Source of the DNA: an uncultured Bdellovibrionales bacterium
GTDB lineage: Bacteria; Bdellovibrionota; Bdellovibrionia; Bdellovibrionales; SG-bin7
Length of the DNA stretch: 64,000 bases
Direction: 5' to 3'
Assembly: GCA_964498095.1 (NCBI GenBank)
Contig: CAZCFY010000001.1
Span: forward strand, 59,386-123,385
Position 1 is the first letter of the stretch; every line of letters starts with the position of its first letter. Under the pieces are notes generated by a model. The model searched no databases, had not been told where the DNA came from, and worked only from the letters and a program-made list of their open reading frames with translations. A program made the translations under genes and the position numbers. Positions 23,342 through 62,079 of the stretch are shown in pieces.

Positions 23342-24826
23342 TCACGAAGCTTTTTTTAGCCGGTATTTTGTGGCCCGGCCACGCCCTGTTTTTTCCAAAA
23401 TCTCATTTTCCACGGCCTCTTTCAGATAACGGTTAGTCGTCGCGGGCGAAACTCCAAAAAGTAGTGTGACTTCATTGGCCGTAAAAAAGTTTGGACCCAT
23501 CTTCTTTTTTAAATCGCCAAAGAATTGCTCATGGATATTTTCGAGGGCTGCGGTTTGCAATGTTAACTTTAAATTATAGGGATTTTCTGAGGACAGATAG
23601 TATTCTCCGAATCTTTCGGATATTGAAAACTTCACTTCATTTTCTTTGAGCCAATTGCGCGCGCGGTTGATAGTATCATGCACTCGGTGAGCCGACGTTG
23701 TAATGGTTAAGTATTCATTGGGAAAAAGTAATGAAAACAAAGTTTCTGTCTTTAAGGTTTTGTAGATATCAGTGGCCAGCGCCAACAGCACGCGGTGAGT
23801 GCTAGTCCCTTTTTTTAAGCGGTTTCCGCTTACGAGATCTATGCCGTCGGCGAGATCGAAACAGGAATCTGTGGGGGAGTCTGGGCCAATTGGCCATAAA
23901 TACTCATTGCCTAATTCAATCGGGCCGTTCCATTTTTTAAGCGCGCGCTTTCGATAGTCGGGATAAGGCGTGCCAAAATAAACACGGCGGAAGAGTTTTA
24001 CATTTTTGGTCGCGACGGCTTCCAAGAGTTCGCATTCGCGCATGACCTCAGGTAAGCGCTTCTCTTTAGCGACATTGAGGACTGCGCGCAGACGCTCGGC
24101 ATTTCCTGTTTTCTGCAGTTCAATATTGGCGCAGTTTCTTTCCACATAAATATTGTAGCGGTAATGGGCGGTGCCTATCGCGGTTTCAATTTGCTTTAAG
24201 ACTTGTTCTGCTTCCGCGAAATTTCTTAATTCAATATGCGCCTCGGCCAGGGTTTGTAAAGCATTGCCCAAAATTAGGTGATAGTTATTTTCTTTTGAAA
24301 CTCTTATTACTTCATTTAAAACTTCGACTGACTTTTCTGGACTTCCGTTGACGATATAGGCTTGAACGAGGTTAATAATTCCAATGAGTCGTTCGTAGCC
24401 GGGTAGGTTTTCGGCGCTGACATATTGTTCGAGTAAAACTTGGGCCGCTTGATATTCCCAGTGACCAAAATGGGTAAATGCAAGGTAGAGCTTGTGTTCG
24501 GGACAGGCAACGGCAAGAGGGGAAGACAAAACGCGGCGGGCCTCGGCCACAACACCAAGGCGGAATAAGCAAATTCCATACTCTACCAGTTCTTGGGGGG
24601 TCGGCGCATCGTGGGCGAATTTGTTTTTGGGCCGCACGATGGGATTTAGAATCTTAAAAGCCAGGCGATGATATCCCACTCGCCGAGCCATGTTGGCATA
24701 AGGTAGCGCGAACTCGCGCGGTAATTTGCTTGTCTCTAAACAGTCCAAATGTTTTTGTACTTCTTGGATGTTCCCGGTTTTGAGTAAGCGATCTAATTCT
24801 TGTAGATTTTTCTGGCGCGCGGGCAT
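23342..24826 (-). CDS. TPR-like helical protein with C-terminal winged-helix DNA-binding domains
   Basis: Helical repeats. LFSLLFPNE...HRVHDTINRARNWL (OmpR-like wHTH). C-terminal VTLLFGVSPATTNRYL...GRGRATKY (HTH). Confidence 0.7.
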   Translation of the reverse strand: MPARQKNLQELDRLLKTGNIQEVQKHLDCLETSKLPREFALPYANMARRVGYHRLAFKILNPIVRPKNKFAHDAPTPQELVEYGICLFRLGVVAEARRVLSSPLAVACPEHKLYLAFTHFGHWEYQAAQVLLEQYVSAENLPGYERLIGIINLVQAYIVNGSPEKSVEVLNEVIRVSKENNYHLILGNALQTLAEAHIELRNFAEAEQVLKQIETAIGTAHYRYNIYVERNCANIELQKTGNAERLRAVLNVAKEKRLPEVMRECELLEAVATKNVKLFRRVYFGTPYPDYRKRALKKWNGPIELGNEYLWPIGPDSPTDSCFDLADGIDLVSGNRLKKGTSTHRVLLALATDIYKTLKTETLFSLLFPNEYLTITTSAHRVHDTINRARNWLKENEVKFSISERFGEYYLSSENPYNLKLTLQTAALENIHEQFFGDLKKKMGPNFFTANEVTLLFGVSPATTNRYLKEAVENEILEKTGRGRATKYRLKKAS

Positions 24827-24832
24827 TCATTT

Positions 24833-24840
24833 ATATCGGA
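24833..24840 (-). promoter_or_regulatory. Sigma28-like -10 element TCCGATAT, 6 nt before the ATG at 24826
   Basis: Resembles GCCGATAA. No clear -35. Confidence 0.45.
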
Positions 24841-24916
24841 AATTGTCGCCATTGAGCATAGAGTAAATTCTCAAAACGAAACGTTTTCTCCTCAAAAATC
24901 CGAGCCAAAATCGGCT

Positions 24917-24943
24917 CAAATAGGAGCAAGATTTTACCGATAA
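24917..24943 (+). promoter_or_regulatory. Sigma28-like promoter CAAA-N15-ACCGATAA
   Basis: Matches TAAA-N15-GCCGATAA spacing. 6 nt before ATG 24950. Confidence 0.55.
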
Positions 24944-24949
24944 GGACGT

Positions 24950-26359
24950 ATGTCCAGTCCGCAGAAATTTCCCTCATATTTTGGCGCGTTACTTCTTCTG
25001 GGATTGGTCATTTTTAATTTCCAAAACTGTTCATTATTTGATTCGCCGGTAAATTTTAAAGAAAGTCATGAGATCATTCAAAGCCGCGGTAATGGCGACG
25101 GACTCGACGGAAAACCAGAGCCTGGTGAGTATGTGCGTACGCTGGCGGACTTTTCTTGCGAACAAGTTCGCGGAGAGCAGGCGCTAATTAACGTCGATGT
25201 CCAAACGGGCCTACTTGTTAAAGACAATTGTCAAAATGTGAATTTTCAGTTTTCGCTCAATGATCCCGGACTCTCATTCGAATTTTATAATCCCACTTAT
25301 TTTACTTTTGCCGGGGGTATATTTGAAAAAATAGATCCCAAAATCGTGTTGCAGCCCACGCAAGCCTTTTGCCGCTTTAAGGACAGCACCAAAGGCGTCG
25401 ATGCCATTATAAAATCGGATTCAGAAGGCAGCCTCCTAAGTGCCCGCATTATTATGGGGGAATATTCAAGTCAGATAATCCGCTATATCGATTACCCTGC
25501 CATGAACAAGTCAGTTAGTGGCACCTCCACGGATTTTCAGAGTAACGATGATAGCCTTGTTATCAAAATTAATGGCGCGCCGGCGGAATATAAAAATCTC
25601 TCCGGCCAGATTGTTTCAGTAATTGACGGTGAGCCTCGTCAATACTCTGTGATTTGTCAAAAAATGAGTGAAGAACCGCTGTTAAAAATGGACCCTTCGG
25701 GTCTTGTAGCTTATTATAAATTTGACGTCGATACCATTATTGACGGAAATGTAATCATTGATTCCAAAGGAAATAATGCCGGAACCGTAGCTGCGGGCAC
25801 CGGCGATACTGCAAATAAATCCCTAGCGGGTATTGTCGGGCGGGCAATGTCCTTTGACGGAGTTGATGACCTCGTCAATATGGGAAATGTTTTGGATATG
25901 ACTACCAATGATTTCTCACTTAGTTTTTGGATGAGCGCTCCCGATACAACTATTGCCCGCACACTCTTAGGCAAACGGTGGGACTTAGGTGGTGGAACGC
26001 CCGGTTGGAATATTGTCTTTTCACCTAGTTTCCGCATTACTGGAAGACTTTCGGATGGCACAACAACAAGTCAAGGCGGTGCGGGGATTGTCCTCCCCAA
26101 CGCACAATTCCATCACGTCGTCATCGTACATGACCGCTTAGGTACCGGGGAAACTATTTATTATCTCGACGGCACGGAAGTTAGCCGCTTTGATATAAGT
26201 TCGCTGGGGAATATCTCTTATGCGGGGAGTTTTCTTCTTGGTTCCGCTAACGCCCCTGGCTCAACCTTTCAAGGTTCTTTAGACGAAGTTTCTATCTGGC
26301 GGCGCGCCTTATCGGCGACAGATGTCCAAGCGCTATTTACGAACTTGGGGATCTACTAA
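24950..26359 (+). CDS. LamG-like jellyroll domain lipoprotein
   Basis: FNFQNC signal, GNGDGLDGKP. C-terminal LVAYYKFD...SFDGVDD...FSLSFW...FHHVV...F.GSLDEVSIW.RALS. Confidence 0.85.
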   Translation: MSSPQKFPSYFGALLLLGLVIFNFQNCSLFDSPVNFKESHEIIQSRGNGDGLDGKPEPGEYVRTLADFSCEQVRGEQALINVDVQTGLLVKDNCQNVNFQFSLNDPGLSFEFYNPTYFTFAGGIFEKIDPKIVLQPTQAFCRFKDSTKGVDAIIKSDSEGSLLSARIIMGEYSSQIIRYIDYPAMNKSVSGTSTDFQSNDDSLVIKINGAPAEYKNLSGQIVSVIDGEPRQYSVICQKMSEEPLLKMDPSGLVAYYKFDVDTIIDGNVIIDSKGNNAGTVAAGTGDTANKSLAGIVGRAMSFDGVDDLVNMGNVLDMTTNDFSLSFWMSAPDTTIARTLLGKRWDLGGGTPGWNIVFSPSFRITGRLSDGTTTSQGGAGIVLPNAQFHHVVIVHDRLGTGETIYYLDGTEVSRFDISSLGNISYAGSFLLGSANAPGSTFQGSLDEVSIWRRALSATDVQALFTNLGIY

Positions 26360-26471
26360 GCTCACTTACCGTTGTAGCAGGAATTCCCGCACCAAAACTC
26401 TCAGTTTGTAAAAGTTTCACGCTCACATCTAAAAATGGAGATTGGCGTCAAGTCCGCGTAATATATGCGTT

Positions 26472-26831
26472 ATGATTCAATATACTTTCGCTGTTGGTTT
26501 TTTACTTTGGGCAAGTTTAGTTTCGGCAAATGGGGACACGCTTTATTGCAGCGCCAGCTTCAATAACGGCGCTAATAATGTCGTGATAAACCTCACAAAA
26601 AAAGAAGATGGCTCTTACGCAGGTAAAATCGATGATACTTTTTTATTTATTGCGACTCCCGAACAAGCCGATGCCAACCATAAAGTGCTGACTCTTTCCA
26701 TTGCCAGTCTCAACGATCATATTGACCTCTCTACGCAAGCGACAAGCGTTTATCCTCTGCCTGATCATAACAGCGAATTAAAGGCGGGCTTATCAGTAGG
26801 TACTGTTCACGTATCATGCGGTGTGGAGTAA
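26472..26831 (+). CDS. Secreted hypothetical protein
   Basis: Signal peptide ending VSA. N- and C-terminal Cys. Confidence 0.65.
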   Translation: MIQYTFAVGFLLWASLVSANGDTLYCSASFNNGANNVVINLTKKEDGSYAGKIDDTFLFIATPEQADANHKVLTLSIASLNDHIDLSTQATSVYPLPDHNSELKAGLSVGTVHVSCGVE

Positions 26832-26841
26832 ACTCTTGAAG

Positions 26842-27171
26842 CTATCGAGACATTTCGCATTCGACACTACTCGATTTATCTTCTCCAGAAGCGCGATAGT
26901 AAGAACCACGTTCATTAAATGTCAGCCAACCTTCTTTTGAAATGAAAGATACATAGGTCGAATTATCTGTAGACACTTTATAGACTCTGCTGACAGAGGT
27001 TTCGCCTTCGACTGTGTATTTGATAGCAGAGCGTTTAGAATTAAGTACTATCGAAATATTATCGTCTGCAAAGCAAGTAACAACACGATGGCTATTAAGT
27101 ACGGACATAGGTTTCAAGATTGCTGCTTGTGCTGAATTGCAGACTACCATTAAAAAAATAATTTTCTTCAT
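26842..27171 (-). CDS. Secreted hypothetical protein
   Basis: GGAG RBS, MKK signal peptide, Cys pair. Confidence 0.65.
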   Translation of the reverse strand: MKKIIFLMVVCNSAQAAILKPMSVLNSHRVVTCFADDNISIVLNSKRSAIKYTVEGETSVSRVYKVSTDNSTYVSFISKEGWLTFNERGSYYRASGEDKSSSVECEMSR

Positions 27172-27540
27172 TAGAATTGCTCCTGTTTGCTAAGTCGTAG
27201 GATATATTTCATGAAGAATTTAGATTCAAATTGGAATTCGCCACCTTGAAATTAATACTGACTAGTACTAAATTTCGAAAGGCCTAGCTCAGCTCGATTT
27301 TACGCCGGCTTCTGGCGGCTCTTAGGGAGCCTTAAAAGCATGATTAAACTATAGCGTGATACTCCGCCCATTTGCCTTCACAGGGCGGTTTTTCTAAGCT
27401 GTAACCTCGCTGACAGAAATTACCTTGGCTTTAAACTTCCGCCAATCTATCGCCCCGAAGTTTATAAAATTAAATCCTCGGCATTGGCGTTAAATTCGCT
27501 TCAAAGCGAGAGCTTCGGCACAAACGGCGGAGAGCTAAAA

Positions 27541-33446: not shown

Positions 33447-35009
33447 CTATTGCAACAATGTTTCCAGTTTTTTTAACAAAATTTTTGCAGTAAATGGTTT
33501 TTCCAAGAATCCCGATGAGTTCCAGTCAATGCCGCGAGACTCCAGGGTGTCACCTAAATACCCCGATAAAAATAGTATCTTGAGATCAGGCGCAATCGTG
33601 CGCACGCTCTTTGCTAATTCGGGACCATCCATCTCAGGCATGACGACGTCTATGATCAAGAGATCAAAGTCTCTTCCCCTTGTTCTTATGATCTCCAGAG
33701 CGCTCTTTCCGCTCGAAGCCGTTACAACGTTGTAACCGTAGGCTTTTAAACCATCGCAAACGACTTCTCTTAAAACATCCTCATCTTCAACATAGAGAAT
33801 GTTTTTGGTGGCTCTGGTGTTGGCTATTGAACTTATTTTAGGATCGCGATTTCTATCGAGAGGAACTTGAGAATCTGATTTCGGTAGGTAAACGAAAAAT
33901 GCCGAACCCTGATTTGTTTTGCTTTCGACGTGAACAAGCCCCTTGCACTGCCTTATTATTCCAAATACTGTTGATAGTCCGAGTCCAGTTCCCTTTCCCA
34001 CTGGTTTAGTAGTGAAGAAGGGATCAAATATTTTCATGAGAACATCATCCGGCATTCCGCAACCAGAGTCTCTTACTATCAATTTTAAATAGTCACCGGG
34101 AATGCACTCCTGGCCGTATAGAAATTTTTCATTAGGCCCAATTTTTGCGTTACTTGCCTCTATTTTAATAGTTCCACCCTGCGGCAGGGCATCGCGCGCA
34201 TTGACTACTAAATTCATAATAACTTGTTCTATTTGAGCGGGGTCTGCTTGGACGTTGTGGATGTTTGGTTTTATATCAATGGATAACGTAACATCTTCGC
34301 CAATTATGCGGTTAAGCATCTTTTGAAAATCGATCAAAATATCACCAACATTTACAATAGTTGGCTGAAGAATTTGCTGTCGACTAAATGCCAATAACTG
34401 CTTTGTCAGTGAGGTTGCTCGTTCTTCCGCTCTAATAATTTGTTGAATGCTTTTCATCGCTAGTTCTTTGTTGTCAATACTCTCTTGGGCGCGTTCGGCA
34501 CAAGTTGCAATGACAGTAAGAATATTATTGAAGTCATGCGCTATCCCTCCGGCTAATCGGCCAATGGCCTCAAGCTTTTGAGACTGTCGAAGTTGTTCTT
34601 CCGTATGATTTAACTCCGCTTGAATTCGGCGCTTTTCCTCCGCTTCAGCCAGTTCTCGTTTTACCGCATGTATAAGACGAATAAAATTGTCCTTTAAAAT
34701 GTAATCGTGGGCGCCGGCCTTCATCGCCTCTACTGCCTTTTCTTCACCCACAGATCCCGAAATCAAAATAAAGGGAATTTTTAAGCCTTTCTCTTTTAGA
34801 ATTTCAAGTGCTCCCAAGCCATCAAAAGTTGGCAATGAGTAATCAGAAATTATAATATCCCAATCCTTTTTTTCTAATTGAGCGGTGAAATCTTTGGCGT
34901 TATCCACGCATTCTGATTCCAATATAAAATTACCCTGCGACAGGGCTCTTAAGACGAGTGCCGCGTCAGAGTCATTGTCCTCAATCAAAAGAAGTCTAAC
35001 CTTTTTCAC
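33447..35009 (-). CDS. Hybrid kinase REC-HisKA-HATPase-REC
   Basis: LLIEDN, SDYSLP, GGIAHDFNN, NLVVNARDA, GTGLGL, C-terminal REC. Confidence 0.93.
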   Translation of the reverse strand: MKKVRLLLIEDNDSDAALVLRALSQGNFILESECVDNAKDFTAQLEKKDWDIIISDYSLPTFDGLGALEILKEKGLKIPFILISGSVGEEKAVEAMKAGAHDYILKDNFIRLIHAVKRELAEAEEKRRIQAELNHTEEQLRQSQKLEAIGRLAGGIAHDFNNILTVIATCAERAQESIDNKELAMKSIQQIIRAEERATSLTKQLLAFSRQQILQPTIVNVGDILIDFQKMLNRIIGEDVTLSIDIKPNIHNVQADPAQIEQVIMNLVVNARDALPQGGTIKIEASNAKIGPNEKFLYGQECIPGDYLKLIVRDSGCGMPDDVLMKIFDPFFTTKPVGKGTGLGLSTVFGIIRQCKGLVHVESKTNQGSAFFVYLPKSDSQVPLDRNRDPKISSIANTRATKNILYVEDEDVLREVVCDGLKAYGYNVVTASSGKSALEIIRTRGRDFDLLIIDVVMPEMDGPELAKSVRTIAPDLKILFLSGYLGDTLESRGIDWNSSGFLEKPFTAKILLKKLETLLQ

Positions 35010-35135
35010 TTATAGCCATCGTACGCTCTATTGGACGAGAGTGCAAAAAAAAAGTACTAGCAATAATTAATAATTACTTAGTAAAAAGTTAACGAATGCG
35101 GAAAATATTAAAACGAACAAAGGGTTATATAAACT

Positions 35136-35507
35136 TCAGGTATTGGTGAGCTGATCTATGCAGTCTAAGAGTTCAGCACCAGAGAAGGGTTTTGCTAAAA
35201 ACTTTAGGTTTACGTCCTCGGTTGGCAAAAGTTCCTCCACGAGGTGTCCCGACATTAGGATGATCTTTGTGTGGGGCGATGCTTGGCGAATCCATTTTAG
35301 TAGTTCCAGGCCATTTAGATTGGGCGTAAGTAGGTCAGTAATTATGAGATCATAAGAATTTTGCGTGAGTCTTTGTTGGGCGACACTGCCATCGGGAGCT
35401 ACGGTTACTTGAAACTTGTGAAGTATGAGCGTGTTTAAGACTATGTCCCTAAAAAACTCGTCGTCTTCGACCAATAAAATTCTCGCTCTTTCCTTGATTA
35501 AGGACAT
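35136..35507 (-). CDS. Single-domain response regulator
   Basis: ILLVEDD, IITDLLTP, AKPF. TAATG coupling to the upstream kinase. Confidence 0.88.
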   Translation of the reverse strand: MSLIKERARILLVEDDEFFRDIVLNTLILHKFQVTVAPDGSVAQQRLTQNSYDLIITDLLTPNLNGLELLKWIRQASPHTKIILMSGHLVEELLPTEDVNLKFLAKPFSGAELLDCIDQLTNT

Positions 35508-36766
35508 TAGGCAGTTTTCCCTAATATTAAGGGAGATTGCTTATTGAATTGGATGACAAAGGTAGTATTAGAAAAAGAGTCATCATAACTAATTTCCGCA
35601 TTAATCTGGCTTAAGATGGATCTAGCGGTACTCAGGCCGAATCCTACCCCAGTTTTAATGTTTTGCTTAGTAGAAAAGAGAGGATCAAAAATTCTCCTTT
35701 GTATGTCCCGTTTAATTCCTAAACCCGCGTCGGTAATTGTTACAGTTATAGCCTCGTCTGTATCTGTTCCGCTTATCTTAATCCATCGGGCTGATTTTGA
35801 ATCTATCATTGCTTCAATGGAATTAGTGATGATGCTATTGAAGGCAGCGAGCAAATTGCTTGGATCCGCAGTTACAATCAAATCCTGACTGGGAAAGTCT
35901 ACGGTGATTTGGATCTTATGTTCTGCCGCAATTCTCTTATTTAATATTACGGTGCTATTGATTACCTCCTGTAATACTAGCTGTTGCAGCCTTCCTTTTG
36001 TAATAGACTGGCGCGCAAATACTCTTAGCTTTTGGATGAGGTGAGCCATTCCCTTGATCGATTCCTTCATGATGGCTATGCGTTTGGAGATCATTTTTAT
36101 ATCAACTGAATTTGATTGTAAGTGTCCTTCCATGAAGTCGGTAGAGAGAGATAGGGCCGCTATGGGAGTACTAAGTTCGTGCGCAATGCTACCTGACAAT
36201 AGTTCCTGAGCCTGAATGCGGCGGCTTTGCGAGTAGAGGCGAATAAGTTCCAGTTGAATCCTGATACGCTGGCCTAAAACGATTTTGGCAAGAATCGAAG
36301 CCGCTGCCAATACGGAAAGGGCAGAAAGCGCCACATGCTTGTTTGTCGATTGATAAAAAACCGCGCCGAAGACAATCCAGATTCCCGCTAAATAGGTATA
36401 GAACACCTTCCATGAGAATGTTATGCACGCCAAGCACAAGATTATAAGCAAGAGAGTATTGGTGTGCTGAATATCTCCGGAAAGAACCAAGTAAATCGCG
36501 GCTTTCGCATAGATAAGTCCGCAAAGATAAGAGATTATGAAGGATGGGCTGACGTGGCGAAATAAATAATCGGAAAAAAAGTAAACGAGAAAAAAGTTTG
36601 CGGTGGTAAAGGCCGCAAGAACGGAAAGTCCAAACTTAAAGTCCTCGGGTAATAGAAAGAATTGGCTTACTGAAAAAAACAGATAGAGAAGGCCAAGGCC
36701 AAGTGCATAGGGCCGAAGCATCTTGCGGCTAATTTCTTCTAGACTTTCTCTTTCCTGTTGCTGCAT
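35507..36766 (-). CDS. Membrane sensor histidine kinase (~6 TM)
   Basis: Hydrophobic N-terminus, IAHELSTP, NSIEA, DAGLG, GVGFGL. Confidence 0.88.
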   Translation of the reverse strand: MQQQERESLEEISRKMLRPYALGLGLLYLFFSVSQFFLLPEDFKFGLSVLAAFTTANFFLVYFFSDYLFRHVSPSFIISYLCGLIYAKAAIYLVLSGDIQHTNTLLLIILCLACITFSWKVFYTYLAGIWIVFGAVFYQSTNKHVALSALSVLAAASILAKIVLGQRIRIQLELIRLYSQSRRIQAQELLSGSIAHELSTPIAALSLSTDFMEGHLQSNSVDIKMISKRIAIMKESIKGMAHLIQKLRVFARQSITKGRLQQLVLQEVINSTVILNKRIAAEHKIQITVDFPSQDLIVTADPSNLLAAFNSIITNSIEAMIDSKSARWIKISGTDTDEAITVTITDAGLGIKRDIQRRIFDPLFSTKQNIKTGVGFGLSTARSILSQINAEISYDDSFSNTTFVIQFNKQSPLILGKTA

Positions 36767-36819
36767 CCATGTAATTTCGGATATTTCTCAATAGGAATAA
36801 AGTCCAGGCATCAAAAGAC

Positions 36820-38151
36820 TTAAAATAAGGAACCTAAAGCGGCGAAGTATTCTAGATCGATTGTTTCCGAATCATTAAGAGACATTTTTTGAAGAGCATC
36901 TTTGCCGCTCATGCCATCGCTATTTGGATTTTTAATGGCATAATTACAGAAAATATTGGCAACACTTATGAGCTTTGCAAAAGGATGTATTTTATCTCGT
37001 CTTAAGCGGCGAGGATAGCCCGACCCTAGGAGATTTTCATGGTGTTCAAGAGCGACCTGCAGAACGTCAGTGGGCACGGATCTCATGGACTCTAGGATCT
37101 CTTTTCCGCGCTGAGCGTGACCCTCAAGTGTACTTATTTCGGCCTGACTTAGTCGAACCCTTGGTTTATCGAGAATGCTTCGATCCAATTCCTTCTTACC
37201 TATGTCGTGAAATAAACCGGCAAGGCTCACTTTAAAAATAGTTTGGACGGAATTCCAGCCAAGTTTTTTGGCTATTAGCACCGCATAAGTGCTAACTCCA
37301 AGGCTGTGGGCGTAGAGATAATCAGAGTGTTCGTTAAGTACCTTTAGAGTCGTGAAGGCATCATCATCTTGAGACAAAATCTGCAGGCTATTTTGCACAA
37401 ATTCCTTGGCGATTTGAAAGTTTTCACTGTCTACACCATCAACAAAAGCCTTTTCTAAAATTACTTCGCCGGTGTATTTGACGAAATTCTTCTTAACTTG
37501 CATTGGTATTTTAGAGCTGGCGGCCATCGATTTCGTCAGTTTCAAATTCATTCCAACGAGAGTTGTATAGTCCTCCATGCGAATAAAGAGGTAGCGCACA
37601 TTTTTATCTTTATACATTTTTATTTTCTGGAGCGAGATGTCTTCGCCTTTATGGGCGATCTTCACGTAACGGTCTTCTCCTAAAAGAATATAGATATTAA
37701 ACGGGATCTGGTGCCCAACTATGAAGTCGTCGATAAAAATTTTGCAGTATTGAATCTCTTCTGCGGGCGGAGGCGCTGAGTCCGAGTTTGTTTTTAATAA
37801 AGATTGAATTGTGGTTATTAATTCAGATTCGCTAAACGGTTTTGTCAGAAACCCGTCGGCCCCCATCTCAAAGGCGGCTTTGGTTTCCAATATTTGCGAA
37901 AAGCCAGTCATTAAAACAAACGGGGTTGTGAATTTCTCCTTCACCCAATTCAAAAGCTCTACCCCGCTTAAATAGGGCATTTGGATATCGGAGATTATAA
38001 GGTCGTATTGGGTAAGGCTTAAAAGAGATTTCGCACTTCGACCGTCGGGGGCCTCGGTGATCTGAAAAGAATTTCTCTGTAAAACGTCTTTTAGTGCAAT
38101 TCTGAAAAATTCATCGTCCTCTACGAGTAAAACGCTTGCCACAAATTCCAC
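36820..38151 (-). CDS. REC + HD-GYP domain protein (putative c-di-GMP phosphodiesterase)
   Basis: N-terminal REC (SDIQMP), LFHDIGK, HHENLLGSGYP. Confidence 0.9.
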   Translation of the reverse strand: MEFVASVLLVEDDEFFRIALKDVLQRNSFQITEAPDGRSAKSLLSLTQYDLIISDIQMPYLSGVELLNWVKEKFTTPFVLMTGFSQILETKAAFEMGADGFLTKPFSESELITTIQSLLKTNSDSAPPPAEEIQYCKIFIDDFIVGHQIPFNIYILLGEDRYVKIAHKGEDISLQKIKMYKDKNVRYLFIRMEDYTTLVGMNLKLTKSMAASSKIPMQVKKNFVKYTGEVILEKAFVDGVDSENFQIAKEFVQNSLQILSQDDDAFTTLKVLNEHSDYLYAHSLGVSTYAVLIAKKLGWNSVQTIFKVSLAGLFHDIGKKELDRSILDKPRVRLSQAEISTLEGHAQRGKEILESMRSVPTDVLQVALEHHENLLGSGYPRRLRRDKIHPFAKLISVANIFCNYAIKNPNSDGMSGKDALQKMSLNDSETIDLEYFAALGSLF

Positions 38152-38182
38152 CTTTCATTCTATGGTTTATGATCACAGCTGT

Positions 38183-38560
38183 TTAAGCAAGCGGATTTTC
38201 AGAAAGGATAGGATGCTTTTTAAGCTCCTCTTTGGCGGACTCTAAACGAATGACCAGGTCTTCAATAAGTTTTGGAATACTTTGTTTCTCGTCGAATGCG
38301 CCATCACAGAGGGATTCGATCTTGGCACAAATCTCCATTACTTCGTCGGCTCCCAGCATTTTACTACTGGATTTTATCGAATGAGCTTCCATTCGCACGC
38401 CTAAAAAATTACTTATCGCCAAATTATCTCGCATTGTTTCTAGTCTTTGCGAAGAATTAGTAATGTAGACATCTATAAGCCTTTTTGCCAGCTTATGACG
38501 ATCTCCCATTGATGCGTCAAGATAGGAATATAAGGTATTTGTGTTTATAGACTTAGTCAT
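38183..38560 (-). CDS. Hpt (histidine phosphotransfer) protein
   Basis: LIDVYI...EAHSIKSSSKMLGA..V..IC.KIE. Confidence 0.85.
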   Translation of the reverse strand: MTKSINTNTLYSYLDASMGDRHKLAKRLIDVYITNSSQRLETMRDNLAISNFLGVRMEAHSIKSSSKMLGADEVMEICAKIESLCDGAFDEKQSIPKLIEDLVIRLESAKEELKKHPILSENPLA

Positions 38561-38579
38561 TTTGTACTAGTTTACCGCA

Positions 38580-39434
38580 TTGGACGCTTTAGTGCAAATG
38601 TCCAGTTCATTTTTTTCCAATAGGCAATCGTGGGAATTTAATTTTAAATTATACCATATGTACTTTGGAGATTTGGTTTCATTTCTTGGTGGATTGTCTG
38701 TTGGGCTTGTAATCACATTTTTTCGAACCGTTTCGCTTAAAGAGGAATTAAATGAACATCGCGCAAGGCGGCGTCACCGGAGTGCAAATAACTATGAGGG
38801 CCTGCCTACGATAGCTGACGCAAAGCTCGAGTTCTTGCAAAAACGTAGTTTCAATATGCTCACGCGATTACAAGGAATCATCGGAATTACCGATATCCTC
38901 TTGGCAACCCACAAAAATGAAATAGATCCAAAAGATCTAAAAATCATTTCTGAAGGCGCTCGCCAAATTCACTCACTCTTAAGCGAGGGACTTAGTCTTC
39001 ATACGAACACCGAGGATATTACCAACGGAGACTCCGCGGCCACCGAAAAGGTCAATAGTAGAAAAATACTTTTGGTCGAAGACGATGAAATGATGCGTAT
39101 CACTTGTTGTGAAATGCTTAAAGCTCTTGGTTTGGAGTTTGAGGTTGTCAATAATGGTAAAGATTGTATAGAAAAAGTGAAAAATTCAAATTTTGGCCTA
39201 ATAATTATGGACTGCGAAATGCCGGTCATGAACGGCTATGAAGCGACGCTCGCGATTCGCGGAATGGCTGGCGATAAAAAATCCGTTTCAATAATTGGGT
39301 TTACCGCCAACGCCATAAGGGGAGCTGACAAGAAATGTCTGGCTGCAGGCATGAGTTCCTACATTTCTAAACCAATTCATTTAAATGAGTTGCGCTCAGC
39401 AATTACTAAATTTATTCCTTTAGACACGAACTGA
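38580..39434 (+). CDS. TM + degenerate HisKA + REC protein (no HATPase)
   Basis: SFNMLTRLQGIIGITDILL (HisKA-like, no His). C-terminal REC ILLVEDD, MDCEMP, SKP. Start uncertain. Confidence 0.8.
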   Translation: MDALVQMSSSFFSNRQSWEFNFKLYHMYFGDLVSFLGGLSVGLVITFFRTVSLKEELNEHRARRRHRSANNYEGLPTIADAKLEFLQKRSFNMLTRLQGIIGITDILLATHKNEIDPKDLKIISEGARQIHSLLSEGLSLHTNTEDITNGDSAATEKVNSRKILLVEDDEMMRITCCEMLKALGLEFEVVNNGKDCIEKVKNSNFGLIIMDCEMPVMNGYEATLAIRGMAGDKKSVSIIGFTANAIRGADKKCLAAGMSSYISKPIHLNELRSAITKFIPLDTN

Positions 39435-48785: not shown

Positions 48786-48844
48786 CTTTTTTAGAAATAT
48801 ATAAGAGATTTTTTTAGTTTTTAAGGAATTTAAATAGATATAAC

Positions 48845-48872
48845 TTGACAATTGTAGCCAATTGGCTACAAT
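48845..48872 (+). promoter_or_regulatory. Sigma70-like promoter with 22-bp palindromic operator for the TA operon
   Basis: TTGACA (48845-50)-16 nt-TACAAT (48867-72). Perfect palindrome ATTGTAGCCAATTGGCTACAAT 48851-48872. Confidence 0.8.
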
Positions 48873-48878
48873 CAAGCT

Positions 48879-49220
48879 GTGATAAAGCAAGGACCTCTGA
48901 GCATTATAGTCTATGAAACAGCCGAAGGAAAAAGGCCCTACTCTGATTGGATCAAAAATCTTCGCGACTCGACAACAGTTGCTCGGATTAGGGCCAGAAT
49001 TGATCGTATCGAAGAAGGAAACTTAGGCCAGTATAAAGCTTTAGGCACGGGGCTTTTTGAATTTAAGTTTAATTTCGGATCTGGTTATCGTGTCTATTTT
49101 GCTGTTGATGGTGACAAGATTATTTTAATTCTTTCGGGCGGAGACAAAAGCTCGCAGCGAAAAGATATTCTTAAAGCCCGTGAATATTGGACCGACTATC
49201 TTATGAGGAAAAGAAAATGA
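48879..49220 (+). CDS. Type II toxin, RelE/ParE superfamily (HI1419-like addiction module killer)
   Basis: YET..GK.P...W...LRD......I..RI.R...GNLG..K.LG.GL.E.....G.GYRVYF...G..IIL...GGDKSSQ..DI.KA..YW. Confidence 0.92.
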   Translation: MIKQGPLSIIVYETAEGKRPYSDWIKNLRDSTTVARIRARIDRIEEGNLGQYKALGTGLFEFKFNFGSGYRVYFAVDGDKIILILSGGDKSSQRKDILKAREYWTDYLMRKRK

Positions 49221-49546
49221 AAAAAGTAAAAGTATCAAAAAAATTGCCTGCTGTTGATTACCGAGAAAGTCTTATTGAAGAGCTCAAAGGCGACGAAAAA
49301 GCGCAATACATGTACTTGAAAGTTTCTCTTGAGGAAAATGGCGACATGCCAGAAGTTTTCCTTAAAGCCGTTGAAACAGTAGCTAAAGCCCGTGGGTTTA
49401 GTAACTTTGCTAAAAAAACGGGCTTAAACAGGGAAAATCTTTATCGCATATTTTCAAATGAAAGAACTCCAAGGCTTGAGTCATTGGTTAAAATTTTGGA
49501 TGCTCTTGGTTTTAAACTTACTATTACTCCGAAGCGTGCTTCTTAA
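49217..49546 (+). CDS. Antitoxin, HI1420-like addiction module antidote (HTH)
   Basis: ATGA overlap with the toxin. VAKARG....A..TGLNRENLYRIFS....PRL..L.KIL.ALG.KL. Confidence 0.92.
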   Translation: MKKVKVSKKLPAVDYRESLIEELKGDEKAQYMYLKVSLEENGDMPEVFLKAVETVAKARGFSNFAKKTGLNRENLYRIFSNERTPRLESLVKILDALGFKLTITPKRAS

Positions 49547-50347: not shown

Positions 50348-50365
50348 GCGGCTTGCCAAAGAGTC

Positions 50366-56558: not shown

Positions 56559-56785
56559 TTGGAAAGATAAAATCTTACGAACCGCTGAAAGGGCTCCCCA
56601 TACAGTCTAAAACCAATCGTTGCAAATTGAGACCGCCGTCTCAAAAATGCGTGCAGATCTTTTATACGATTTTTGAGACTTAAACACCCCTCTATGTGCC
56701 ATAAGTATATATGCAGCAATGGGCCGGCATCTCAATTGCTTAATTGTTTCGTAGGTACCGGGGGACGGCGTATGAGGGATGTAAG

Positions 56786-56812
56786 GTTAATTTCGGCCCC
56801 CAATGCCGATAG
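56786..56812 (+). promoter_or_regulatory. Sigma28-like -10 GCCGATAG, 6 nt before ATG 56819
   Basis: 7/8 match to GCCGATAA. -35 is weak (GTTA at N15). Confidence 0.5.
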
Positions 56813-56818
56813 GTAAGA

Positions 56819-57559
56819 ATGAAGTTAAAAAATCAGGGTTTTTCGTTGATAAGTGTGATGGTAGCCGCTGGCGTTGGATTAATTGCGGCGACGGCCCTAA
56901 TTCAACAGATGGTAAATCAAGCTCGCATGATACGCCACCTCGAAAGCAAATTAGAAGCAAATCAGCTTAAACAAGAGCTTGCATTGATGTTAGGAGATGC
57001 TGCAAATTGTGACGCCAGTTTTGGTGGTTTAACCGGGTTGCAAGTAGGCAATATTGGGAGTGACGAATACTCTGATATTACCTCTCAGTTGACTGGTACA
57101 TCTAGACCTCTAAGTCAGTTAAAATCCAGCTATTCGCAAAACAATAGATTCCTCAACATAAACGAAGTAAGAATTTTTAAACCGGTAAACAAACTAGGAG
57201 GAGCCCCCAGTAATGCGTCTCCATATGAAATTAAAATTAAGGTGATTGTTCAAGAAAAAGGAGGTCTTGAGATGATTATGCAAATAGATGGGCCAACTAT
57301 CATACTTAATGTGACTGGCGGTACTATCGATGCTCCTGACGCCTGTGTAACTGGTGGGGGAAGCGCTCCATTTGACGTTAACCTACTAACCTGTAACCAA
57401 AGGGCCCACCCAGGCACGATCACTGCTGATCAGGTATGTAAAAACGAAAACGGGTTTTGTACCGGAACAAGGTATTTTTCCTCTTCGCTTGGAGAATGGG
57501 CTCCGAGAGACTGTACTTACACCCAAGCTGGCGGCTCAGTTCACTGCTGTACCTTTTAA
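56819..57559 (+). CDS. Minor pilin/pseudopilin with prepilin N-terminus
   Basis: KNQG|FSLISVMVAAGVG hydrophobic helix. Cys-rich C-terminus ending CC.F. Confidence 0.8.
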   Translation: MKLKNQGFSLISVMVAAGVGLIAATALIQQMVNQARMIRHLESKLEANQLKQELALMLGDAANCDASFGGLTGLQVGNIGSDEYSDITSQLTGTSRPLSQLKSSYSQNNRFLNINEVRIFKPVNKLGGAPSNASPYEIKIKVIVQEKGGLEMIMQIDGPTIILNVTGGTIDAPDACVTGGGSAPFDVNLLTCNQRAHPGTITADQVCKNENGFCTGTRYFSSSLGEWAPRDCTYTQAGGSVHCCTF

Positions 57560-57687: not shown

Positions 57688-57709
57688 GCCCGCGAAATTA
57701 CTCGCGGGC
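57688..57709 (-). terminator. Hairpin immediately downstream of tRNA-fMet
   Basis: GCCCGCGA-N6-TCGCGGGC, 5 nt past the CCA end. Confidence 0.55.
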
Positions 57710-57714
57710 CTCAT

Positions 57715-57791
<77 letters not shown>

Positions 57792-57854
57792 ACAAAATGA
57801 AAATGAGCAAAAGTCTAAAAAGAGACCTGACAATATAGGCTTATGTGTAAGGCG

Positions 57855-58802
57855 TCAACGATTTAAAAAGTATGCGTTTTGTTTGATTGCCTTATAACCT
57901 TGCACCTGCTTTGCGCCCTTTTCTTTAGGAAACCGCGCCCATTGGTAGACACAGTTCTTAGAGCAAAGCTCATTAAGGCTTGGGTCGTTTTGGCAATTAT
58001 CGCAAATCTTATAATTCGTATTGCAACGCTTGCACGACTGAATATTCTGCGCCGGCTGACCGCAATGGGGGCAAAACGCATATTTTTGCGAAGGATCAAG
58101 GTTTTGGTCCACAGCTACACGCTCGTCAAAAACAAAACATTCGCCCTCAAATAATTCGTTAGGAAATTCCTCTAAATAGTTGAGAATCCCATCTTTTAAC
58201 TGAAAAACATTATGATAGCCCAGATCCTGCAAATTCTTGTTCCCTTTTTCGCAGCGTATACCGCCCGTACAGTACATCAGAATTTTTTTATCTTTGGGTA
58301 TATTGAGCTGGCGAAATTTTTCTTGGAATTCGGTGAACTCATCAATTTTTAAATCAATCGCCCCCTTAAACATACCGATGCGGTTTTCATACCAGTTGCG
58401 GGTGTCGACTACGATGGGGTTTTCACTTTTAATAGTCTCATGCCATTCTTTTGCGCTCAGATGTTTTGGGTTGTGAAGAGACGGTTCGTAATCGGGGATA
58501 TTAAGCGTTACGATTTCTTTGCGGATCGCCACTTTTATTATGCGGAAAACCTGTTTCGGCGCGTGGGAGTCCTTGAATTCAGTAAGTTTGATCCCGTAGC
58601 GGGCCCCAATATCTTGTTTAAAATTGTTCATGACTTGTTCCGAGGGGCCGCAAACCGTGGAGTTGATCCCTTCGGTGGCCAGTAATATCAGCCCTTTAAT
58701 TTCGCGGGCCTTACAATAATTCTTCCAGAATTCTTGCTCGGTTTTTAATTTTTCTTGTGGAATTTTTGTGAACTTATAAAAAGTCGTAATAAAGTACTTC
58801 AT
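57855..58802 (-). CDS. trhO: Rhodanese-related tRNA U34 hydroxylase (TrhO/YceA)
   Basis: FYKF, GLILLA.EGIN.T, DTRN.YE..IG.F, MYCTGGIRCEK, L..GIL.YLE, GECFVFDERV. Confidence 0.92.
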   Translation of the reverse strand: MKYFITTFYKFTKIPQEKLKTEQEFWKNYCKAREIKGLILLATEGINSTVCGPSEQVMNNFKQDIGARYGIKLTEFKDSHAPKQVFRIIKVAIRKEIVTLNIPDYEPSLHNPKHLSAKEWHETIKSENPIVVDTRNWYENRIGMFKGAIDLKIDEFTEFQEKFRQLNIPKDKKILMYCTGGIRCEKGNKNLQDLGYHNVFQLKDGILNYLEEFPNELFEGECFVFDERVAVDQNLDPSQKYAFCPHCGQPAQNIQSCKRCNTNYKICDNCQNDPSLNELCSKNCVYQWARFPKEKGAKQVQGYKAIKQNAYFLNR

Positions 58803-58897
58803 AGCATCCCCCCTCCAAAGATGGGCCTATAAGTAAATCAATAGGTCTTAAATTTTAGGGGTAAATTAATGGATGAAGGCTTTTTGGTCAAATATGT

Positions 58898-59284
58898 TTA
58901 TTGGCCATTAGCCACATTTTGTATGGCAGTCTGTAATTGGGTGGCAATGGCGGGATACGATCCACCGGGGTGGGGAGAACCGGCTTGGATTTGTCGTACT
59001 ATTGTACTCGATGCGGGGTCATTCCAATTGATGACAGGAAAAGCAGCTTCATAAGCTTGCGCGGCATTCGTGACGGCAAAAAGAGGTGACTCTGCATTCC
59101 CATGGCAAGCGGCGCAATTGGTTCTTAAAATAGGGAGGATTTGCGCGGTAAAACCCGAGAGCTTAGAAGAATCCAAAGAGGCGGCATCATGTTGCGGTTC
59201 CGTAAAATCGGCACAGTTTTGAAAAGCGGTTAAGATTATAACGACGACACCAAAGAGCGCTAAAAAACTTTTGGGTTTGCGCAC
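58898..59284 (-). CDS. Monoheme c-type cytochrome lipoprotein
   Basis: AFQNC lipobox, ILPIL..NCAACHG. GTG start with GGAGG. Confidence 0.78.
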   Translation of the reverse strand: MRKPKSFLALFGVVVIILTAFQNCADFTEPQHDAASLDSSKLSGFTAQILPILRTNCAACHGNAESPLFAVTNAAQAYEAAFPVINWNDPASSTIVRQIQAGSPHPGGSYPAIATQLQTAIQNVANGQ

Positions 59285-59311
59285 GATACTTCCTCCGGCA
59301 CTGATAATATT

Positions 59312-59338
59312 ATATCGGATTAATACGGCTAGACCTTA
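59312..59338 (-). promoter_or_regulatory. Sigma28-like promoter TAAG-N15-TCCGATAT
   Basis: Consensus spacing, 27 nt upstream of GTG 59284. Confidence 0.6.
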
Positions 59339-59461
59339 GACCTTCATCGGGGTTTTTTTGTTTTTCAAAAAGCCTTGGGATTTAGCGCAATTAAACTGTC
59401 TCATTTTGATAAAATTTGTTGGCGAGATTAGGGTTTTTAGGCAAAATAACTCTTAATCAAT

Positions 59462-61060
59462 ATGTTAAGCGCCTTGTTCTTTATCGTGATGACTTTGTTT
59501 AGCCCAAGCAATTCTCAAGCTGAGCCCTGGGTTTCCAACCGTTTTGCGCAAAACTGTTCTTCATGTCACTCGCCCAATCGCAATAACGTGCCGCTTTTAC
59601 AGCGCCGCTGCACGCTCTCTTGCCAAGGCTGTCACGTTAATCCAAATGGCGGAGGAATGCGTAACCGCTATGGCGCTTGGAACCAAAACCGATTTTTACG
59701 TTCTTTCTATTGGCCAAAAGCGATGGGCATTCAAGACGATTATAAAATGCCTGCGCCCGTCGAGCAGCAGCTATATCACGAAAAGGTAAAAACCGACGCC
59801 GAACGTGATTTAGAACTGCTCGCCAAGGCGACCAAAAAGAAAGATGATAAGAAGGGCAAAAAGGGTAAGGGAAAAGAAAAATCCAAAGAAGAAAAATTAG
59901 AGGCGGCCAAAGAAAAAAAGAAAAATAAATATGGCACGCTGGCCGATATCGTTGCCAATGGTTACCCGCTTGTGACCACAGATAATCTTGATTACAACGA
60001 CGCAATTTACGACGACAAAAAAGATTGGCGCGTAACTCCGGATCGTAATGGTTTTATGAAGCGCCTGACGAAAGGCGATCCTTATCGCGAAGAACTTTCG
60101 TTGCCGATTTATGGGAGCGGTGATTTTAGATATTTCTTCATTAGTCAAACCGGGGACGGCGCGAGCGCGAGCTTTAAAGATCAATGGAAAAACTTTTTGA
60201 TGAGCGTGGATTTGGATTTCCGCATGCGTCCCGTAAAACGCTTTTTGTCTTTTGTGTTTGAGACGCGGTTTTTTGGTCAGCCGTTAAATCCTGATATCGA
60301 AGGTACTTTTTTAACATCTAATAGCGTCCGCACCCGTTCGGCCTATTTCTTAATTGATGAGATTCCTTTTAACACCTACGTCATGGGCGGAATTTACCGG
60401 CCCTTATTTGGTCACTACACTCCGGATCATACCGCGCTCGCGCAAGTGCTATCAGGGTTTGGGCAAAACACGGCGCTTAAGACGCTTTCCATTGGAACAG
60501 CTCCCAACGTGCCTTTCTTGTACGTGCATAAAGTTTTTCCGCATGACACTGAAGATCTTGATAACAACGGCGTTCACAAAGGAGCTGATGCTACGGTAAT
60601 AAACTTAGGCGGCCGCTTTGTGACGATGGGGCTCTCGGGCATGCTTTCTCTTTGGCGCGGGACTTACAAATTAAATAACGATACGCTAAAAAACGAAATG
60701 ACCTCTTTGACTTTGAGTGGTTTTTTTATTCGCCGTTTGATTTTAAATTTTGAACTCTTGCGCATCGAGCGGGAATTTCAGCCCGGCCGAAAAGATGCCG
60801 GTCTGGTTTATAGTCTTGAGTCCAAGTACCGTTTGTGGCGCGAAAATTACGCGCAATTTAACTATGCCGCCTCCAACGTAGCCCGTGACATGAAAGAGGG
60901 CGAAAGTTCGCAAATGGGTGTTGGCCTCAAATCGATGGTTTATTCGGGGTTAGAATTAGAACTGATGATGATAATGAATTCAAACACGCGCGTCAGCGGA
61001 GTTACCAGCACTACGACGGACTACACGACGATGCAGTTTCAAACGCACTTTTTCTTTTAA
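59462..61060 (+). CDS. Di-heme cytochrome c fused to a putative outer-membrane beta-barrel
   Basis: Signal peptide, CSSCH and CQGCH, amphipathic strands, terminal FQTHFFF. Confidence 0.7.
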   Translation: MLSALFFIVMTLFSPSNSQAEPWVSNRFAQNCSSCHSPNRNNVPLLQRRCTLSCQGCHVNPNGGGMRNRYGAWNQNRFLRSFYWPKAMGIQDDYKMPAPVEQQLYHEKVKTDAERDLELLAKATKKKDDKKGKKGKGKEKSKEEKLEAAKEKKKNKYGTLADIVANGYPLVTTDNLDYNDAIYDDKKDWRVTPDRNGFMKRLTKGDPYREELSLPIYGSGDFRYFFISQTGDGASASFKDQWKNFLMSVDLDFRMRPVKRFLSFVFETRFFGQPLNPDIEGTFLTSNSVRTRSAYFLIDEIPFNTYVMGGIYRPLFGHYTPDHTALAQVLSGFGQNTALKTLSIGTAPNVPFLYVHKVFPHDTEDLDNNGVHKGADATVINLGGRFVTMGLSGMLSLWRGTYKLNNDTLKNEMTSLTLSGFFIRRLILNFELLRIEREFQPGRKDAGLVYSLESKYRLWRENYAQFNYAASNVARDMKEGESSQMGVGLKSMVYSGLELELMMIMNSNTRVSGVTSTTTDYTTMQFQTHFFF

Positions 61061-62046
61061 GCTACTTTTTTCTTATTATTGGCATCGCGCTCAACGATAG
61101 CTTTAAGCGCCATAAACGCTTCGCGATTATACGGACGGCCTTGAACGTTTTCGATAAAGCTTAAAGCTTCATGCGGAGTTTTTACCTTGGGTAAATTTAC
61201 GTTCGGGATGGTGAGGTTTACAAAAGCGTTAGCAAGAGCCACAACGCGCGCTAAGGGATTAATGCGGACTTCTCTTAAGCGGCGCGGGAAGCCCTGGCCA
61301 AAGGAGTTTTCGTGATGTTCATACACGATGGCAATGACGTCATCGGGTATCGACGGTACACTTTGCAGAATCTGGACGCCACGGTAAGGGTGAGTTTCAT
61401 ACTCGACAATTTCATCGTGCGTGTAATCCATGCGCGGTTTATTTAAGAGTTCACTGGATAACTCTTTTTTGCCAATATCATGGAGCATTCCGCCTAAAGC
61501 GATTTTTTCGATGGTTTGATCTTTTTGCCAATTAAGTTCGCGGCCAACCATCGCCGCAATGGCGCTTACCGCGATACAGTGATCAATTAAACGGTCATTA
61601 CAGAGTGTGAGCCCCGCCATGATCTGCGTAAGTTCTGGTTTTTGATCTACCATCTTAACGATGGAGTTTGTTATGGCTTTTGCGTGCGAATAAGTTTCTT
61701 GCGAAAATCCAAAGCGTTCGATTTCAGAAAAGACGGAGTTAGCTGTAAGAGCTAAGATGGAGGCTTTGCTTTTTGGCGGAATCTGTTTTGGCCCAGCCAG
61801 CATTGTTTGCGCCGTTTGCACCGTGCGCGTAACAAATTTTCGGTACTCGGTCTTTTTTACCCATACTTCCTCAAGGTGCTCTTGCGCTTCTTGCGAGAGT
61901 CCGGCCGTTGCCGCCGTCATGCCTGCTTTGATTACCAGCAAAAATTTGCCATTTGGTAACCGAATGTAAAGATCAAATGGCACGCGCGGAAGTTCCGCAA
62001 ATTCCCTGATTGAAACTGAAATCAATTGGTCTATACTGAGGTCCAT
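61057..62046 (-). CDS. HD-GYP domain protein
   Basis: DHC, MLHDIGK, HP..G, HHENSFGQGFP (GYP to GFP). Confidence 0.9.
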   Translation of the reverse strand: MDLSIDQLISVSIREFAELPRVPFDLYIRLPNGKFLLVIKAGMTAATAGLSQEAQEHLEEVWVKKTEYRKFVTRTVQTAQTMLAGPKQIPPKSKASILALTANSVFSEIERFGFSQETYSHAKAITNSIVKMVDQKPELTQIMAGLTLCNDRLIDHCIAVSAIAAMVGRELNWQKDQTIEKIALGGMLHDIGKKELSSELLNKPRMDYTHDEIVEYETHPYRGVQILQSVPSIPDDVIAIVYEHHENSFGQGFPRRLREVRINPLARVVALANAFVNLTIPNVNLPKVKTPHEALSFIENVQGRPYNREAFMALKAIVERDANNKKKVA

Positions 62047-62052
62047 GAGTTC

Positions 62053-62079
62053 TTATCGGACGTCTCAATTTATTACTTA
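62053..62079 (-). promoter_or_regulatory. Sigma28-like promoter TAAG-N15-TCCGATAA
   Basis: Near-consensus. 6 nt before ATG 62046. Confidence 0.68.

Follow-up and report, generated by a model that had tools for sequence, protein, structure and literature searches.

Predicted leaderless genes behind sigma-28-type promoters in an uncultured member of the Bdellovibrionales

In Bdellovibrio bacteriovorus HD100, 140 transcription start sites (TSSs) of the attack phase have been mapped, and 92 of them have the promoter TTAAG-N16-CCGATA, which was attributed to the sigma-28 factor FliA (Karunker et al. 2013, PMC3627812). The text of that paper never mentions leaderless transcripts and contains no analysis of the length of untranslated regions. 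Here we analyze a 64-kb stretch of DNA ("the window") from an uncultured relative of HD100 (43.5% GC), in which four genes have the octamer NCCGATAN, then 6 nucleotides (nt), and then ATG. We think that these octamers are probably sigma-28-type -10 elements that make the four genes leaderless, with transcription beginning on the A of the ATG.

The promoters of the window and of HD100 share a consensus and a lineage, and their targets are of similar kinds (surface or secreted proteins, signalling proteins, and pili). They differ in the spacing after the octamer, which is 7 nt (N7) for most HD100 promoters and 6 nt (N6) in the window. The class 3 flagellar promoters of Escherichia coli, Salmonella, and Campylobacter jejuni are also of the sigma-28 type, with a -10 element of GCCGATAA or CGATwt, a TAAA-type -35 element, and a TSS 6-8 nt downstream (for the CGATwt box of C. 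jejuni, see PMC3847290), but their mRNAs have leaders with Shine-Dalgarno (SD) sites, and the regulon is limited to flagellar and chemotaxis genes. In Streptomyces coelicolor, whiH is transcribed with sigma-WhiG, of the FliA family, and its -10 element (GCCGACAA) lies 7 nt before the start codon, where the TSS is found (PMC3160421). However, whiH is a single gene with a GTG start, from an actinobacterium, a group in which leaderless mRNAs are usual, and no conserved regulon-wide layout goes with it. Leaderless genes of the sigma-70 type, with TANNNT 6-8 nt before the start, occur in Actinobacteria, Deinococcus, and some delta-proteobacteria (PMC3160421; GeneMarkS-2 group C, bioRxiv 10.1101/193490). 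The principle is alike: the -10 element adjoins the start codon, there is no SD site, and the AUG is 5'-terminal. The sigma-28-type genes in the window differ from these because they would rely on an alternative sigma factor that is tied to a developmental programme, and tools that look for the Pribnow box do not detect them.

Thus, the FliA-type attack-phase regulon (PMC3627812), leaderless mRNAs, and one leaderless promoter of the sigma-28 family (whiH; PMC3160421) are already known. What appears to be new is a conserved, regulon-scale, leaderless architecture for sigma-28 in the Bdellovibrionota, along with its consequence for annotation. Our literature search found no paper that links Bdellovibrio with leaderless mRNAs, and a 2025 toolbox for Bdellovibrio (PMC12622784) treats all of its native promoters as leadered.

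The four genes, and a fifth gene with a leader that serves as a comparison, are:

Gene A, 23342..24826, minus strand: 494-amino-acid TPR protein with a C-terminal winged helix-turn-helix (wHTH)-like domain, predicted to be leaderless; octamer TCCGATAT at 24840..24833, spacer aaatga at 24832..24827, ATG at 24826..24824.
Gene B, 24950..26359, plus strand: 469-amino-acid Laminin_G_3 (LamG) lipoprotein with the signal peptide MSSPQKFPSYFGALLLLGLVIFNFQN followed by C, predicted to be leaderless; promoter at 24917..24949, with CAAA at 24917..24920, N15, ACCGATAA at 24936..24943, and ggacgt at 24944..24949; ATG at 24950.
Gene C, 56819..57559, plus strand: 246-amino-acid type IV pilin-like protein with the prepilin leader MKLKNQG/FSLISV and N_methyl at residues 4-27, predicted to be leaderless; octamer and spacer at 56805..56818, with GCCGATAG at 56805..56812 and then gtaaga; ATG at 56819.
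Gene D, 61057..62046, minus strand: 329-amino-acid HD-GYP protein (HD_5), predicted to be leaderless; promoter at 62047..62079, with TAAG at 62079..62076, N15, TCCGATAA at 62060..62053, and gaactc at 62052..62047; ATG at 62046.
Gene E, 58898..59284, minus strand: 128-amino-acid lipoprotein with the lipobox FQNC and a CAACH haem-binding motif, the leadered comparison gene; promoter and leader at 59285..59338, with TAAG at 59338..59335, N15, TCCGATAT at 59319..59312, and then 27 nt that include the SD site GGAGGA at 59296..59291; GTG at 59284.

Gene D is presumed to encode a cyclic di-GMP (c-di-GMP) phosphodiesterase, and its product is a distant relative of Bd1817 (PDB 3tm8). An earlier note on this DNA had described the four octamer-N6-ATG sites, and its coordinates and sequences all agree with ours. 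It also correctly gave a -35 element at N15 for two of the four genes (CAAA for the LamG gene and TAAG for the HD-GYP gene) and a fifth TAAG-N15-octamer (59338..59312, minus strand) before a leadered gene. Its gene labels agree with Pfam (TPR with a C-terminal wHTH-like domain, Laminin_G_3, N_methyl, and HD_5/HD).

All five sites contain CCGATA, and 6-7 of the 8 positions of each octamer agree with GCCGATAA. The -35 element at N15 is CAAA for the LamG gene and TAAG for both the HD-GYP gene (within TTTAAG) and gene E. CCGATA shows no general over-representation in the window (33 copies, with 26.8 expected), yet 4 of the 33 copies share one offset before a first start codon, where 0.028 would be expected per offset (Poisson P = 2.4e-8). 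This test considered the first start codons of all open reading frames (ORFs) of at least 80 amino acids, offsets of 0 to 30, and all 4,096 hexamers; CCGATA is the only hexamer with four or more matches at one offset. Across 179 permutations of CCGATA, the maximum at any one offset was 2. The only other copy of CCGATA near a first ATG in the window is CCGATA-N4-ATG at 37991 (minus strand), which we rejected as a further leaderless site because it is coding sequence, within a response-regulator receiver domain.

To place these sites relative to mapped TSSs, we used the HD100 data in two ways. A position weight matrix (PWM) was trained on 77 attack-phase promoters (consensus cTTaAG-N16-CCGATAAG), whose own scores range from 8.7 to 22.4. 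The promoter of gene E has the best score in the window (18.6), followed by the HD-GYP gene (17.2), the LamG gene (16.5), and the TPR gene (11.5). The first three are full matches that include the -35 element, while the TPR and pilin sites match in the -10 element only. We also reanalyzed Table S2 of PMC3627812, with 93 FliA-type promoters. The spacer between the octamer and the +1 position is 7 nt in 68 of the 93 promoters and 6 nt in 14. Where the spacer is 7 nt, transcription begins on a purine in 60 of 63 cases, and 52 of the 63 have a pyrimidine at -1. For 21 of the 93 promoters, the TSS coincides with the start codon as annotated, at its first base (18 with a spacer of 7 nt and 3 with a spacer of 6 nt), and all three of the N6 leaderless cases begin exactly on the A. 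In the N6 genes of the window, the A and T of the ATG are the seventh and eighth bases past the octamer, so initiation is predicted on the A. For gene E, the predicted +1 position is near 59305.

This argument depends on the start codons, and the earlier note had named different true starts as a way for its proposal to fail. We found that the starts are upheld by the prepilin leader, the signal peptide, and the N-termini of homologues. Each of the four ATGs is the earliest possible start codon in its ORF. The start of the pilin gene is fixed because the prepilin leader begins at the octamer-adjacent ATG. A lipoprotein signal peptide that ends in FQN/C begins at the ATG of the LamG gene, and because the orthologues of this protein keep a KFP motif among their first residues, the first ATG must be coding. 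The N-terminus of the TPR protein agrees with syntenic orthologues of 492 amino acids, and both the TPR and the LamG orthologues have conserved residues from the first codons on. For the HD-GYP protein, the N-termini of 32 homologues align to the ATG in the window. We rejected downstream start codons, as they would remove the prepilin leader, the signal peptide, or conserved N-terminal residues.

All four genes are divergent from their upstream neighbor, so each needs a promoter of its own. The TPR and LamG genes are separated by 123 bp, and the pilin gene has about 260 bp of intergenic DNA upstream. The HD-GYP gene has only 48 bp, and its promoter fills this gap to a divergent ABC-transporter gene. 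A scan for the sigma-70 consensus upstream of the four genes found no promoter that faces any of them. Within the first codons of the HD-GYP gene there is a sigma-70-like TTGAAA-16-TATACT (62010..62037, plus strand) that points toward the ABC-transporter gene (ATG at 62095). This promoter and that of the HD-GYP gene face each other and overlap, in a span of about 70 bp.

The HD-GYP gene gives the broadest view of conservation. An alignment-driven scan of the genomes of 185,579 species found 80 orthologous loci, of which 77 were usable. An octamer lies beside the ATG (N6-N10) in 69 of the 77, at 35-85% amino acid identity and including cultured Bdellovibrio; any ATG up to 30 nt from the aligned N-terminus was accepted, which favors the pattern slightly. 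The spacing is N6 in 19 orthologues, N7 in 36, N8 in 8, and N9 or N10 in 6, so that N6-N8 accounts for 63 of the 77, across the Bdellovibrionales. The earlier note had expected a spike at 6 nt. Across the order, the spike is at 6-8 nt with a mode of 7. The closest relatives (L001, L002, and L088) have N6 as in the window, while L003 has N7. The orthologous promoters have a median PWM score of 14.0, and their consensus (cTtaA...CCGATAAg) is that of the HD100 logo. Across these 69 orthologues, the octamer keeps its place relative to the ATG while the sequence of the spacer is free to vary, and an SD-like motif is present in only 3. Eight orthologues lack the octamer, and two of these have AAGGAG or GGGAGG in its place. 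The window itself is part of a metagenome-assembled genome from a bioreactor. Among public genomes, 'Proteobacteria bacterium SG_bin7' is the nearest (its HD-GYP protein is 84% identical), and homologues of the window's proteins come from metagenome-assembled genomes of Bdellovibrionales and Pseudobdellovibrionaceae. We considered identifying one of the orthologous promoters (L038) with that of Bd2524 from HD100, as they have the spacer GTTTCCT in common, but the lengths of the genes differ (225 versus about 314 amino acids), and we did not adopt this.

The other genes have fewer relatives. The divergent TPR/LamG pair is syntenic in two of them (L081 and L082), with octamers at N7-N9 on both sides: GCCGATAA-N7-ATG and GCCGATAA-N9-ATG for the TPR orthologues, and GCCGAAAT-N9-ATG and GCCGATAA-N9-ATG for the LamG orthologues, in that order. 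A search for relatives with the TPR protein alone found none, and its orthologues were reached via the LamG neighbor. Pilin orthologues have GCCGATAA-N6-ATG (L083) or GCCGATAG-N7-ATG (L084 and L085), and a more distant pilin orthologue has an ordinary SD site instead of the octamer (GGGGGA-N6-ATG). For gene E, the promoter, leader, and SD site are all kept in L001, L002, L003, and L088, and GGAGGA is present in every orthologue. As both are conserved in the same genomes, sigma-28 promoters come in two builds: with a leader and a strong SD site, or with neither. The leaderless layout is probably ancestral in the Bdellovibrionales and under selection.

Automatic gene calls in public assemblies miss these starts in three related contigs. 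The pilin orthologues in L083 (4410-5096) and L084 (971-1450) are called 13 codons downstream of the octamer-adjacent ATG, and one LamG orthologue (L081 4486-5904) is called 8 codons short. Proteins called in this way lack the prepilin leader or the beginning of the signal peptide.

We also asked how far the layout extends beyond this lineage, with an exact search for TTAAG-N16-CCGATAAG-N6-ATG across the same 185,579 species. There were at least 120 matches, and 32 of the matches listed are from Bdellovibrionota (including those labelled as Bacteriovoracales or Oligoflexia). Among the matches listed, the ATG opens an ORF of 80 or more amino acids, as its first start codon, in 16 of the 32 from Bdellovibrionota versus 6 of the 88 from elsewhere (P = 6e-7). 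The pattern has the Bdellovibrio form of the -35 element, and leaderless sigma-28 genes may exist in phyla with a TAAA-type -35 element. In these matches, a signal peptide often follows the ATG in Bdellovibrionota, while elsewhere the ATG is mostly internal to genes. If the ATG in the pattern is shifted 9 nt further away, the share of Bdellovibrionota among the matches listed drops from 21/80 to 4/80 (P = 3e-4). In pooled relatives, 7 of 32 strong sites other than the anchor genes lie 5-9 nt from a start codon, and the proportion in HD100 is comparable (23%).

We propose that each octamer serves as the -10 element of a sigma-28 (FliA)-class promoter, of the type that the attack-phase programme uses in Bdellovibrio. 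RNA polymerase would initiate at a purine 7-8 nt past the octamer; as the octamers end 6 nt before the ATG, transcription would start on its A. The mRNAs would have no 5' leader and no SD site, and translation would follow the leaderless route, in which the ribosome binds the 5'-terminal AUG directly. Gene E would be built in the ordinary way, with a leader of about 20 nt and GGAGGA. For the organism in the window, we infer the TSS, FliA as the sigma factor, leaderless translation, and the attack-phase timing. The proposal of leaderless FliA-type genes, which goes back to the earlier note, is supported by the geometry of the HD100 TSSs, by conservation in orthologues, by the divergent arrangement of the genes, and by the lack of a competing sigma-70 promoter upstream of them.

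Several observations weigh against this proposal. The pilin site scores below 9 with the PWM, and neither it nor the TPR site has a good -35 element: the TPR gene has ATGC at N15, and the pilin gene has a TTAAT that is 2 nt too close and a TAAG at N19. These two promoters may need an activator or be weak. The spacing of the window's genes (N6) is a minority class in HD100 (14/93). Two of the spacers (aaatgA and gtaagA) end in a purine at -1, so a leader of 1 nt is possible, and the N9 spacing of the LamG orthologues predicts a leader of 1-2 nt rather than none. Even in HD100, FliA was assigned by the similarity of the motif, and the authors state that knockouts are needed (PMC3627812). We found no gene for FliA or another sigma factor among the ORFs of the 64-kb window that were scanned. 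Among the sequencing runs that we searched for the window, no RNA runs match and only DNA runs do; for the locus from B. bacteriovorus strain s4, the only match among RNA runs was a soil metatranscriptome with 6% of the words. Finally, in Bdellovibrio reporters, removing the ribosome binding site (RBS) from leadered constructs greatly lowered expression (PMC12622784), though this is a different matter from translation of a 5'-terminal AUG.

A rival explanation is that the promoters are real but the transcripts are not strictly leaderless, with leaders of 1-3 nt or with translation from a downstream start codon. In HD100, 7 FliA-type TSSs have leaders of 1-5 nt, and 21 TSSs lie within annotated genes. 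The N9 spacers of the LamG and TPR orthologues, the two spacers with a terminal purine, and the downstream ATGs that gene callers chose in L081, L083, and L084 also point this way. We consider this explanation unlikely. If translation began further downstream, the proteins would lose the prepilin leader, the signal peptide of the lipoprotein, and conserved residues at the N-terminus, while leaders of 1-3 nt are too short to hold an SD site and would behave as leaderless; and the three leaderless N6 cases in HD100 initiate exactly on the A. Somewhat less probable still is that the CCGATAA box is bound by something other than FliA (another sigma-28-like or ECF sigma factor, a repressor, or an activator) and that transcription comes from a promoter we did not recognize. 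Even in HD100, dependence on FliA was deduced from the similarity of the motif; there is no -35 element at two of the four sites; and no fliA gene is among the ORFs scanned in the window. However, the box, the -35 element TTAAG, and the 16-nt spacing between them make up the promoter directly upstream of 92 of the 140 mapped attack-phase TSSs, at the fixed distance that a -10 element should have; the 69 orthologous HD-GYP promoters yield the same consensus; and no other promoter-like element fits in the 48-bp gap before the HD-GYP gene.

We give almost no weight to chance, or to a by-product of SD-like or compositional signals near start codons. CCGATA is not over-represented in the window overall, and two of the sites contain AAGGA or AGGT. 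But the shared offset (P of about 2e-8) is unique to CCGATA among the 4,096 hexamers, which rules against chance placement, and the HD-GYP orthologues keep the distance to the octamer while their spacers are free, with SD-like motifs in just 3 of 69. AAGGA ends 3 nt from the ATG, too near for SD function. We therefore rejected an SD-like role for AAGGA and AGGT, given the short spacing and the lack of conservation. Of these explanations, we prefer initiation by a sigma-28-class polymerase on the A of the ATG.

In these bacteria the leaderless layout goes beyond sigma-28, whose promoters would be one branch of a practice general to the lineage. In the window, a sigma-70-type TANNNT ends 6 nt before 6 of the 38 first-ATG starts, against a background of about 0.9 per offset (P = 2.5e-4), and in 1.1 Mb of pooled related loci, TANNNT is at N6 for 41 of 742 starts, with about 13 expected (P = 1.6e-10). 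Starts in the window with this layout are at 1271 (plus strand), 10568 (minus), 11425 (minus), 13304 (minus), 14440 (minus), 23276 (minus), 55380 (minus), and 48879 (plus). These boxes often have a TTGACA-like -35 element at 17-18 nt, as in TTGACT-N18-TAGAAT-N7-ATG (1271) and TTGACC-N17-TAGCCT-N6-ATG (13304), and the ffh gene of the relative L088 has TTGTCA-N17-TATAAC-N6-ATG. Of 33 delta-proteobacterial genomes, Zheng et al. (PMC3160421) predicted 8 to have 5.7-20.6% of their genes leaderless. We also considered whether leaderless starts are enriched among the FliA promoters of HD100 in particular, but the difference is only marginal (21/93 versus 4/47 for other attack-phase promoters, P = 0.06), which speaks against a FliA-specific enrichment.

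A broader reading of these results is possible, and we hold it tentatively, as less likely to be right than wrong. About a quarter of the sigma-28 attack-phase regulon across the Bdellovibrionota might be hard-wired for leaderless translation that is independent of the SD site. An alternative sigma factor would then be coupled to an alternative mode of initiation, and non-growing attack-phase cells would make surface proteins, pilus proteins, and proteins for c-di-GMP turnover from mRNAs that begin with AUG. The spacing would be a selected regulatory feature, kept across the order for the HD-GYP gene.

If the link between an alternative sigma factor and alternative translation initiation in this two-phase predator is real, then these genes form a testable set, and the best candidate is the HD-GYP gene. 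Gene finders that seek SD sites miss such starts, so predictions of the proteome and secretome of Bdellovibrionota are probably systematically wrong for part of the attack-phase regulon. Leaderless predictors that are keyed to the Pribnow box would similarly find too few such genes in lineages with other sigma factors. Bdellovibrio toolkits take about 100 bp of sequence before the start codon as a promoter and add an RBS (PMC12622784); leaderless promoters, whose +1 position is the ATG, need other cut points.

Besides these results, we noticed several features near the promoters. A small palindrome, GAGCC-aaaatc-GGCTC (24900-24917), lies halfway between the octamer promoters of the divergent TPR and LamG genes. 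A regulator common to both genes could bind it as an operator, and the TPR-wHTH protein is a candidate. The two lipoproteins with sigma-28-type promoters (58898-59284 and 24950-26359) have an unusual lipobox context in common (FQN/C). In the pilin promoter (56780-56812), a homopolymeric tract of C lies between the -35-like TTAAG/TTAAT and the octamer, and the spacing from -35 to -10 is 2 nt below the consensus. The tract has 5 C in the window, 8 C in L084 and L085 (about 940-971 in L084), and at least 16 C in L083 (about 4380-4410), where it is beside an assembly gap. By analogy with the fim genes of Bordetella, which undergo phase variation by a homopolymeric tract, this could be a phase-variable promoter that changes by slipped-strand mispairing.

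Elsewhere in the window, a toxin-antitoxin-like pair (48840-49546) consists of a Gp49/HigB-like gene (48879..49220) and an HI1420-type HTH antidote (49187..49546). It is behind a perfect sigma-70 promoter, TTGACA-N17-TACAAT, that ends 6 nt before a GTG, which makes the pair a candidate for a leaderless operon that is initiated at GUG. A phosphorelay cluster (33447-39434) contains these genes:

33447..35009: hybrid kinase.
35136..35507: REC protein.
35507..36766: histidine kinase.
36820..38151: REC-HD-GYP protein.
38183..38560: Hpt protein.
38580..39434: divergent REC protein.

The histidine-kinase gene (minus strand; HisKA/HATPase_c) is preceded by TCCGAAAT at 36781..36774, the spacer tacatgg, and the ATG at 36766. 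This site (36764..36781) has a PWM score of 14.6, and we tentatively consider TCCGAAAT-N7-ATG to be a candidate for an internal leaderless promoter of the sigma-28 type. Finally, an ORF for an IS200/IS605-type Y1 transposase (Y1_Tnp, E = 2e-11) is at 16539-17105, among short overlapping ORFs.

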